This document shows positions 37,777 through 42,903 of a DNA stretch of 64,000 nt, one piece after another. Under the pieces are notes generated by a model. It saw only the letters and a list, made by a program, of their open reading frames with translations. It had not been told where the DNA came from and made no database searches. The position numbers and the translations under genes were made by a program. Numbering within the stretch: the first letter of the stretch is position 1; every line of letters starts with the position of its first letter. The DNA comes from Mobula hypostoma (lineage: Eukaryota), in the NCBI RefSeq assembly GCF_963921235.1, contig NC_086097.1, positions 19,532,001-19,596,000 of the forward strand, given 5' to 3'.

Positions 37777-38148
37777 CCTCCAACCTGATGGCATGAACAT
37801 TGACTTCTCTAACTTCCGTTAATGCCCCACCTCCCCCTCGTACCCTATCCGTTATTGCTCATCCTCTGGGCTTACCCCCTCCCCCTTTCTTTCTCCCTAG
37901 GCCTCCCGTCCCATGATCCTCTCATATCCCTTTTGCCAATCACCTGTCCAGCTCTTGGCTCCATCCCTCCCCCTCCTGTCTTCTCCTATCATTTTGTATC
38001 TCCCCCTCCCCCTCCAACTTTCAAATCTCTTATTATCTCTTCTTTCAGTTAGTCCTGACGAAGGGTTTTGGTCCAAAACTTCGACTGTACCTCTTCCTAT
38101 AGATGCTGCCTGGCCTGCTGCGTTCACCAAAAACTTTTATGTGTGCTG
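37777..38148 (+). mobile_element. PLE 3' end / pseudo-LTR
   Basis: Colinear with 31620-32061; mutated hammerhead at 38051-38086. Confidence 0.85.
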
Positions 38149-38313
38149 CCCCCATTCTAATAGCTTTCTAGAGGAGCACCATCGACAGTGCCTTGTCCGG
38201 CTGCATAATTGTGTGGTAGTGAAGCTGCAAGACCCTACAGAGGACAGTAAAGACCACGGGGAGGATCCCCACGGTCCTCCCCCTTATTTGTGACATTTAC
38301 CAAAAGCATTGCA

Positions 38314-38505
38314 GGTGTATGGGGTGTCAGGGAGGGGTAGCACCTCTGGTGGGGGAACATGTCGCGTCCTTTTCAGGGCGGTTAGTCCACCTTTGGTCCC
38401 CACCTAGTACTCAGCTCTCACCTGTGGCTCCCCGTAGCTGTTTGCATGTGACAGCGGCCACACACCGGGCAACGGCTTCGACAAGCCGGCTAAACCAGGT
38501 GAGGG
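38314..38505 (+). ncRNA. HDV-like (nested double pseudoknot) ribozyme candidate
   Basis: P1 GGUGUAU/ACACACC, P2 CUCUCACCUG/CAGGUGAGGG, P3 GGC/GCC, L3 UCCCCGU, GG-GCAA, P4 CGGCUU/AAGCCG, J4/2 GCUAA. Confidence 0.72.
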
Positions 38506-38874
38506 TAGCCGACGGGTCTCAAACCCTCGGCGAGATAGGGAGTTGTCTATCCCAGCATGTGAAGACAGACTCCGGCAGATTGAGCGGACGAGACCAATGG
38601 AAGGTCCAACAGTCAAGGCGGCGGTCTCTGCAAGCGTCGTGGAATGTGTAGAACAGGACAAGACACAGAAGATGTCCTGGTCATCCACTGCGCCTAGTCC
38701 CATCTCCAGCCGTCTGGACTCTGTCTTGCCACTGGATCCAGATGGGAATTGGGAAGAGAGAGTGAGGCTGACGCTGCGCAACTCTCCCTCACTTAAATCC
38801 AAATCAAGCGCTAGTCTCAACACCATCATAATGGTGTCGAGGTCCTCATCGACGTCAACGATGGACGAACAAAC
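38314..38874 (+). mobile_element. ~560-bp non-coding retroelement starting with an HDV-like ribozyme
   Basis: CpG-rich insertion flanked by tgcaggt at 38310-38316 and 38875-38881 (TSD plus microhomology). Confidence 0.75.
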
Positions 38875-39421
38875 TGCAGGTAAAGGGCCAAAAGCATTGT
38901 TGAGGATCCCTATCATTCATCATCCCACAATCTCTTTGACCCAGTACCATCAGGAAGGAGGTACAGGAGCATCAGGACTAGGACTGCCAGATGGGGTAAC
39001 AGCTTCTTCCCTCAGGCTGTGAGACTGATGAATACCGTGCCACCATCAAAGTCCAGCCATTGGGACAGCAAACTGTTTACTGTTTACCTGTGCTGCACTT
39101 CAGTATGTGCATTTTGAATTATATTTTATTAATTTATTTATTGTGTAATATTTTGCTATATATGCTGTGTATGATATATGTTGTGGGTGTACCATGGTTC
39201 GGAAGAACCTTGATTCATTTGGCAGTATACATGTACAGTCAGATGACAATAAACTTGAACTTGGTCTTGATAATTGCTGGGGTTGACAGAGATTCTAAAA
39301 ATACACTTACCATATATTCAGAATCAGGTTTATTATCACTGACATCGGTCATGACGTTTGTTGTTTTGTGGCAGCAGTACAGTACAGTGCAATACATTAA
39401 CAATTCACTAAGACTTACAAT

Positions 39422-40044: not shown

Positions 40045-40540
40045 TTAAAAATTAAACATAAATAGAGGAACAGTGAGGAAATGTTCATGAACCAGTCAGA
40101 AATCTGTTAGCAGAATCTATTACTAAAATGTTGCATGTGGGTCTTCCATTTCTGTACCTCCTCCCTGACGGTAGTAACAAGATGAGGGAATGGTCTGGGT
40201 GGTGAGGGTGCTCAATGACAGATGTTGCCTTTTTGAGGCACTGTTTTTTGAAAAGGTCCTCAATAGAGGGGAGGCTTCTGCCCGTGATGGCGCTGGTTGA
40301 GTCTACAATCCTCTGCAGACTTGTCTTGACTTGGCCATTGGAAGAAAAATAAGAACAAGTGTTTGTCTCTCAGTGGAAGGGAGTTCAGTGGGCTATCTGG
40401 GAACAGAATCACCTGGACCATTGTGAACATGTGCTAAGTGATGACTTCTTTTGTCAAGGGTATTTATCTGAACTGAAGGTGGAATTACTTACAACTTGTC
40501 AGGTTTCCCTGGCCTCAATGGAACCAATAGCACTTCTATA

Positions 40541-42379: not shown

Positions 42380-42903
42380 ACCATAACACATAGGAGCAGA
42401 ATTAGGCTATTCAGCACATCAAGGCTGCTCCATCATTTCATCGCCGTCGATTTATTATCTCTCTTAACCCCATTCCTTCTGCCTCCTCCCCATAACCTTT
42501 GACACCCTTACTAATCAAGAACCTATCGACCTCTACATTAAATATACCCAATGATTTGTCCTCCACAGTTGCCTGTGGCAATGAATTCCACAGATTCCCC
42601 ACCTTCTGGCTGAAGAAATTCCACCTTACCTCTGTTCTAAAGGGATGTCCTTCCATTCTGCAGCTTTGCTGTCTAGTCCTAGACTAGAGAAATCCTCACC
42701 GCATCCACATTATTTTGGCCTTTCAATATTTGATAGGTTTCAATGAGATCCCCTATCAGTCTTGGAAACTCCCAGAGCCATCAAACACTCCTTATACATT
42801 AACCCTTTCATTCCTGGGATAATTCTTGTGAACCTCCTCTAGACCCTCTCCAATGTCAACACATCCTTTCTTAGATAAGGGGCCCAAACCACTCACAATA
42901 CTC
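42380..42903 (-). mobile_element. CR1 3' fragment
   Basis: PFRTEVR.NFFSQKV.NLWNSLP. Confidence 0.85.

Follow-up and report, generated by a model that had tools for sequence, protein, structure and literature searches.

What lies at the head of the repeat that begins near position 38,312 of the window, the whole 64,000-nucleotide stretch of DNA analysed here, and what does it do for the element that carries it? An initial annotation, made from the letters alone, had placed an HDV-like ribozyme with an extra L3 hairpin at 38314-38505 and had regarded it as the 5' end of a non-coding retroelement. In our view the window probably (at about 0.8) holds a dead copy of a non-autonomous non-LTR retroelement, ~560 bp long and high in copy number, which joins the 5' UTR of an RTE-like LINE to a 3' end and is headed by a 194-nt HDV-like ribozyme.

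When the window letters were checked, all helices of that annotation were located where it had put them, in HDV-type order (Table 1). The nested double pseudoknot, with the order P1, J1/2, P2, P3, L3, P3', P1', P1.1, J1.1/4, P4, J4/2, P2', is complementary throughout in the window and in the consensus. C179 (window 38490), U118, C119, C120, G123, G156 and G157 (consensus numbering) are unchanged in 20/20 sequences from three families. Both the topology and the core residues of an HDV-like double-pseudoknot motif are therefore present at the 5' end of this copy and of the consensus. Judged from its sequence, the motif is HDV-like by topology and core residues, and it falls outside the class by the short length expected of L3 and by all Rfam thresholds.

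Table 1. Coordinates of the ribozyme motif and of the surrounding retroelement copy (positions are those of the window)
Feature	Position	Strand	Remarks
Target-site duplication, 5' copy, CCAAAAGCATTG, 12 bp	38300-38311	+	Same 12-mer at 38888-38899
P1 5' strand, family register	38312-38318	+	Consensus GGGGUGU (84 copies and alignments); window CAGGUGU, pairs 1 and 2 lost
J1/2, 96 nt, long rod	38319-38414	+	From folds of families A, B and C
Second GGGGUGU unit in J1/2	38321-38327	+	Partner: GCACUC close to P2
P2 5' strand, CUCUCACCUG	38415-38424	+	10 bp with 38496-38505; 97% of cells paired, 20 sequences
P3 5' strand, GGC	38426-38428	+	Partner 38457-38459; 100% of cells paired
L3, UCCCCGU	38429-38435	+	U, CC and G unchanged in 20/20 sequences
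P1.1	C38430, C38431 with G38468, G38467	+	100% paired (20-sequence alignment)
Inserted hairpin A-GCUGU-UUGCAUGUG-ACAGC-G, from L3 to P3 3' strand	38436-38456	+	Stem 38437-38441/38451-38455
P3 3' strand, GCC	38457-38459	+	Pairing in 20-sequence alignment
P1 3' strand	38460-38466	+	Window ACACACC, consensus ACACCCC; A38464 private
P1.1 3' strand GG (38467-38468), then J1.1/4 GCAA	38467-38472	+	Aligned to RF02682 consensus
P4, CGGCUU-CGAC-AAGCCG	38473-38488	+	Covaries between families
J4/2, GCUAAAC	38489-38495	+	C38490 at catalytic-cytosine position; GGCUAA unchanged in 20/20 sequences
P2 3' strand, CAGGUGAGGG	38496-38505	+	Pairs with 38415-38424
Non-coding body	38506-38815	+	Homologous to LINE 5' UTR: ~78% to L091/L092 over first ~310 nt, weaker to ~505
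3' module: hairpins 38816-38841 and 38847-38863, then GACGAACA	38816-38871	+	(ACA)n follows in other copies
Filler, 16 nt, from tail to 3' duplication	38872-38887	+	Not present in other copies
Target-site duplication, 3' copy	38888-38899	+	Identical to 38300-38311

The rarity of such a motif was estimated with a relaxed descriptor (L3 UCCNNGY, an insert of 0-31 nt, a 3-bp P3, GG, P4 of at least 4 bp, CKAA and P2 of at least 6 bp, with at least 6/7 pairs in P1 within 250 nt, i.e., J1/2 of at most 250 nt). A single core was found over the two strands of the window together (128 kb), with possible P1 starts at 38314 and 38321. The same descriptor on 1500 dinucleotide shuffles gave 1 full match and 4 core-only matches, a chance rate of ~0.0007 full matches per 64-kb window, which extrapolates to tens in a 3.5-Gb genome. 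The minimum-free-energy fold of 38314-38505 had the same stability as shuffled sequences (z = -0.09), a measure that is uninformative for pseudoknots.

The usual descriptors and covariance models in searches for HDV-like ribozymes treat L3 as a short loop. At the gathering score, Rfam gave no match in the whole window. The best sub-threshold match was to RF02682, the F. prausnitzii HDV model, which scored 16.2 bits (E = 4.6) where the threshold is 44, and it spans the 3' half alone (GGGCAACGG...CCGGCUAA). The E-value mode of Rfam likewise gave no HDV match on three consensus-like copies, L046, L103 and L104, so that the motif was indeed missed by standard models, as had been anticipated.

The position of the first nucleotide, however, had to be revised. 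The initial annotation had set G1 at G38314 and had drawn a P1 with 6/7 pairs from there. In the family consensus of 84 copies, P1 is GGGGUGU/ACACCCC with 7/7 Watson-Crick pairs, and G1, which pairs with C155, corresponds to window position 38312, 2 nt away from the annotated one. The window copy carries CA at 38312-13, and A38464 where most contigs from other runs have C. Because the first two G are replaced by CA and C38464A is private to this copy, the annotated P1 is a shifted register confined to the damaged window copy. The A38319-C38461 mismatch in that helix is not repaired in the consensus, as the annotation had considered; it vanishes because the register differs. In the family register the pair of G1 with C155 is absent from the window copy, which is probably inefficient as a ribozyme because P1 pairs 1 to 3 are lost.

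A 231-nt query against the 3.48-Gb genome gave 2357 first-look candidates, and the 40 scored among them have 96-100% identity. Among the 39 non-self matches in these 40, 34 start at query position 25 (38314), 2 at 24 and 1 each at 26, 18 and 14. The aligned copies have unrelated upstream flanks and share the start GGGGTGTATGGGGTGTCAGG. An unbiased sample consisted of the first 60 listed places of the core pattern, that is, 61 copies picked by their intact core alone. The 5' end lies at consensus position 1 in 40/61 of these copies and at positions 2-10 in 14 more; the remaining 7 start at 14, 34, 89, 95, 99 and 112, plus one that is rearranged. For the 41 full-length copies, which have a recognisable intact 5' motif and 3' end, a duplication of 10-15 nt adjoins G1 in 24, a duplication of 6-7 nt was seen in 4 and none in 13, whereas in a control with a 20-mer taken from 200 nt upstream 0/41 reached 8 nt. 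The starts of copies therefore align with the predicted cleavage nucleotide of the consensus, as would be expected from the annotation. For the window copy itself, the BLAST starts agree with the proposal that G38314 coincides with the insertion boundary, but the target-site duplication puts this boundary at 38311/38312.

The family to which the window copy belongs (family A) comprises short elements of about 555-575 bp, and a strict pattern of the core had 1521 matches in the genome against 1 in the control. The strict core was also used to look for further HDV-type families, with the start of the family A hairpin excluded; this left 4 matches against 1 in the control, and all 4 were indel variants of family A. 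The window copy, at 38312-38871 (~560 bp), is a slightly truncated and mutated insertion. The 3' ends of copies consist of two small hairpins followed by GGACGA(ACA)n. A coding reading of the open frames (194 aa on the + strand and 170 aa on the - strand) was rejected: the + frame, the longest of the short element, has no Pfam match and no stop inside the element. A classical SINE with a pol III head (tRNA, 7SL or 5S) was also rejected, with the head being a LINE 5' UTR that contains the ribozyme motif and with no tRNA found by ARAGORN in 38000-39200. These results, together with the target-site duplications and the (ACA)n tail, agree with the annotation of a non-coding, non-autonomous retroelement. 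Parts of the stretch occur in 24 public runs, which come from 14 studies and carry 13 coded organism labels, and in one metagenome. All 24 are contig sets, and most are only guessed to be RNA; in the four runs aligned to the window, contigs span the element from ~38314-16 to ~38870.

The copies also vary in the number of a 9-nt 5' unit (GGGGTGTAT, or GGGGTGCAT in the LINE family described below), which is present one, two or three times. It is usually doubled, giving a second GGGGUGU that is held inside the J1/2 rod in family A; there are three units in L007 and one in some family A copies, e.g., L061, and L049 is likewise among the copies that show this variation. Such variation would be expected from alternative P1 registers or from slippage of the reverse transcriptase. 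The hexamer GCAGGT occurs both within the filler (38876-38881) and across the 5' junction (38311-38316), which may reflect microhomology or template switching during integration. Several short-element copies end within the loop of the first of the two 3' hairpins, where variable spacers and then GCCGGCTGGTGGCRCAGTG follow (for example, at C1:217634235, C62:21539841 and C78:25194686). GCCGGCTGGTGGCRCAGTG resembles a tRNA-derived SINE head. Such copies may be composites, or the same spot may have received several insertions. An identical 14-nt 5' flank, AGTAGTATGGGTGT, precedes L042 and the second of the two L043 copies, which lie ~1 Mb apart on contig C1; it suggests either a segmental duplication or part of an additional 5' unit. 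The two copies of L043 have one orientation and are 68 nt apart.

The sample of 61 copies included two members of a LINE family (family B: L091 69-4101 and L092 26-4003), ~4.0 kb in length and 88% identical to each other. The LINE contains PF00078 (E = 4.9e-32) and a weak PF03372 (19.3 bits against a cut-off of 24.5), and its frames are broken in both copies. At E <= 1e-5, 669 homologues of the endonuclease part were found. Those with a name that match best come from a cnidarian, sea urchins, an opossum and turtles; they have 60-74% identity and are called 'craniofacial development protein 2-like', a name which we take to mark RTE/BovB-derived proteins. On account of this name, we call the LINE RTE-like. 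The first ~310 nt of family B are 78-80% identical to the short element, and the homology can be traced to ~505; therefore, the short element is composed of the LINE 5' UTR and a ~55-nt 3' end. The 3' end of family B has a different terminal hairpin, followed by AGACA(ACC)n. The autonomous partner that the annotation had envisaged was thus found in part: L091 and L092 carry the same ribozyme core, but no LINE with the exact 3' end of family A was found. A genome pattern in which this exact 3' end had to be preceded by sequence other than the SINE gave 10 matches, all of them SINE variants, and a second genome pattern for a family A LINE partner gave 1 match, again a SINE. At P1 position 7, C stands opposite A in both L091 and L092, the two copies whose core was read, which counts mildly against P1 pairing. 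Most of the 19 listed family B copies have UGCAU in their 5' units, and about half have one unit and half two; TGCAT is seen in both units, which seem to be homogenised. Open-frame fragments of unrelated retroelements were seen at 40085-40369 (-) and 42438-42683 (-) of the window and at L091 6495-8802 (-), the last being reverse-transcriptase-like by eye.

Variants among the contigs of the four runs led to an older family of ~545 bp (family C), the pattern of which had 250 matches in the genome and 0 in controls. Family C copies start at G1 too (GGGGTGTATGGGGTGTCC), and in at least one case, L104/L115, the element is non-coding, ~545 bp long and bordered by duplications, with (ACC)n as its tail. 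This family has UCCAAGU as L3 and UACA as J1.1/4, outside the UCCNCGY pattern to which the annotation had matched L3. L3 positions 4-5 (CC or UC to AA) and J1.1/4 (GCAA to UACA) switch jointly between families A/B and C (columns 139-140 and 176-179 of alignment A1). A further relative came from a metagenome collection, in which a first scan with the hairpin and the P1 3' strand gave no match and a second scan gave one contig, L116, a 604-nt piece with a diverged copy. L116 has A at L3 position 5 and retains GCAA. Its P1 is GUGGUGU/ACACCAC with 7/7 pairs, in which U-A replaces the G-C of this genome. This compensatory change, in a single decayed copy, is suggestive support for P1 pairing.

Comparison of the families showed that the conservation is concentrated in the ribozyme core. 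Between families, identity is 90-97% in the core (P2 5' strand to P2 3' strand), 62-80% in P1 plus J1/2 and 53-67% in the ~125 nt downstream. Covariation was evaluated in alignment A1, which contains 20 sequences (9 of family A, 2 of family B and 9 of family C). In the proposed structure 91.4% of the cells are paired, compared with 34-48% after the partner positions are displaced by 1-3 columns, and the covariation score of 0.167 compares with 0.04-0.08 after such displacement. Changes in both partners are seen for 14 pairs (4-7 after displacement), and 14 was reached in 2/500 shuffles. The signal comes from P4 and the J1/2 rod helices: P4 pair 2 is GC in 9, CG in 3 and UG in 4 sequences, P4 pair 5 is UA in 9 and UG in 10, and J1/2 helices 2, 4 and 5 have pairs in which both partners differ. 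The rod folds alike in the three families; its energy is -42 to -48 kcal/mol for families A and C and for one copy of family B, and -28 kcal/mol for the second B copy. No covariation is seen for P1, P2, P3 and P1.1 in this genome, where they are invariant; this is neutral with respect to pairing. The covariation looked for in P1 to P4 was therefore found in P4, with one compensatory P1 change in L116, but not in P2 and P3, which are invariant, nor in P1 within this genome. In run X11, all contigs have C at 38477 (5' side of P4 pair 5) with an unchanged partner at 38484; P4 of that organism would be one or two pairs shorter.

These data bear on the main competing explanation, that the element has a 5' UTR of ribozyme descent which no longer cleaves, as the hairpin disrupts L3, and that an internal promoter at G1 sets the 5' ends. 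The insertion does lie within the active-site loop, family C has an equal 5' end without two of the usual residues of the L3 pattern, and the LINE family carries a P1 mismatch. However, a relic would be expected to decay at the rate of its flanks, which are 53-80% identical between families, whereas the J4/2 cytosine, the U, CC and G of L3 and the GG of P1.1 are invariant, and the changes in P4 and in P1 of L116 are compensatory. In addition, RTE elements have no promoters of their own according to a review (PMC6765202). We therefore consider such a relic unlikely.

Still less probable is a 5' UTR structure other than a ribozyme, serving protein binding or translation through another fold, e.g., a UGUGGC/GCCACA helix around L3 and the hairpin. 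A 6-bp extended helix over P2/P3 and the P1 3' strand can be drawn, P2, P4 and the rod, but not P1, form when the consensus is folded to its nested minimum free energy, and the hairpin loop sequence is conserved, as is common in protein sites. Such a structure would leave unexplained why the first nucleotides of the element have a 7-bp match to the stretch before GG, and it would not account for the order and spacing of HDV-type elements or for the alignment of GGCUAA and GGGCAAC to the Rfam HDV model. A chance resemblance within a repeat can hardly be credited, even with tens of descriptor matches extrapolated for a genome of this size. We thus return to the reading of the motif as a genuine HDV-like 5' module, strongly conserved in an RTE-like LINE lineage and in the short elements derived from it, with catalysis predicted from the sequence.

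An unusual part of this module is the 21-nt hairpin, which all four families (A, B, C and L116) have directly after L3 nucleotide seven. The additional helix between L3 and P3 noticed in the window is thus kept in every family, and it is 95-100% identical among A, B and C. Folded alone, the hairpin has -6.6 kcal/mol, and that of L116, which differs in the stem end and loop, has -7.1 kcal/mol. Among the 100 of 250 family C matches listed, the closing pair is G/C in 48, G/U in 21, A/U in 12 and A/C in 5. The two sides are associated (Fisher p = 0.004) in this hand count, which omits 14 rows with indels or other letters and which shared descent may inflate. The loop (38442-38450) contains the palindrome GCAUGC, present in all three families of this genome, and the hexamer UGCAUG, which we take to be the RBFOX binding motif; the loop of L116, ACAUGU, is likewise palindromic. 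Families B and C have GCATGCGA again ~55 nt downstream of the ribozyme motif, and the 5' units of the LINE family contain TGCATG. A full-text word search of open papers found no description of a helix inserted into L3 of HDV-like ribozymes, and none of shark, RTE or vertebrate HDV-like ribozymes.

One possibility, which we hold only tentatively and rather doubt, is that the hairpin is a functional module in the active-site loop and not a tolerated bulge. Separately, the joint L3 and J1.1/4 change of family C could represent a second undescribed active-site variant. Because the loop has a 6-nt palindrome and UGCAUG, it is conceivable that the hairpin could couple cleavage to RNA-RNA kissing (retroelement RNA dimerisation) or to the binding of a host or LINE protein.

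In the genomic HDV ribozyme, U27 points away from the core. The genomic ribozyme has an L3 of 8 nt (U20-U27) with C21 and C22 in P1.1, and as far as it is described there (PMC1874588) it resembles the motif here in the order of elements, the U-C-C start of L3, the G at the sixth position, the GG for P1.1 and the J4/2 cytosine; unlike in genomic HDV, the hairpin takes the last L3 position here. Large HDV-like ribozymes have a helical J1/2 that joins P1 and P2, and a structured J1/2 (P1.2) activates them, in the account of PMC4908430; the corresponding part here is a 96-nt covarying rod. That account mentions no helix in L3, in contrast to the situation here.

Ribozymes of this kind that trim retroelement RNA at the 5' end have been described in PMC6765202, PMC7761336 and the R2 paper (PMC3774820), with SIDE in PMC3414825 and NARTc in PMC3383444. 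According to the review PMC6765202, promoter-less RTE elements carry 5' HDV-like ribozymes. The RTE/baggins LINE ribozymes (Ruminski et al. 2011, via PMC6765202) resemble the present case in that a LINE with endonuclease and reverse transcriptase, promoter-less there and presumably here, has the ribozyme at its extreme 5' end, in the microsatellite-type 3' tail and in the many copies with differing upstream flanks. The present motif differs, as far as the review describes the others, in its 21-nt hairpin between L3 and the P3 3' strand; furthermore, the host here is an animal with a 3.5-Gb genome, and most copies are a ~560-bp deletion derivative. R2 and SIDE share with our element the HDV-like fold, the long J1/2 and internal-deletion derivatives that keep the 5' ribozyme and the 3' end (PMC3774820, PMC3414825). 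According to its description (PMC3774820), however, R2 is specific for the 28S gene and often cleaves upstream in rRNA, whereas insertions here are dispersed, with 10-15-bp duplications and predicted cleavage at the first base of the element. Pr77 of the trypanosome L1Tc/NARTc pair is comparable in that a LINE and its truncated non-autonomous partner have a common 5' HDV-like ribozyme; in the same source (PMC3383444), the 77 nt of Pr77 double as an internal promoter, and the LINE clade and host are other than those here.

The best reading of our analysis is therefore the established role in RTE, R2 and L1Tc-type elements, in which a 5' HDV-like ribozyme would trim the element RNA. A source copy would be transcribed within a longer host or read-through transcript, and ribozyme cleavage directly 5' of G1 would give an RNA starting at the first nucleotide of the element. 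Through target-primed reverse transcription, the endonuclease and reverse transcriptase of a LINE, presumably one of this lineage, would insert a copy of the freed RNA elsewhere, which would account for the duplications of 10-15 bp and for the microsatellite tail. As the ribozyme would trim the element out of the longer transcript, both the RNA and the copies made from it would start at G1.

Taken in this way, the module is ordinary in function and new as a structural variant. The lineage counts far more than a thousand copies in a single animal genome, and relatives of it occur in runs that carry at least four different organism labels; short-L3 models miss it because a helix is conserved where L3 meets P3. 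Provided that the consensus cleaves, the catalytic loop of this ribozyme class tolerates or uses an inserted helix, at a position for which no use in engineered HDV-type switches was found in the literature searched, and searches for the class under-count its members. RTE-derived short elements could then be annotated as such, and their 5' ends would be explained without a promoter.
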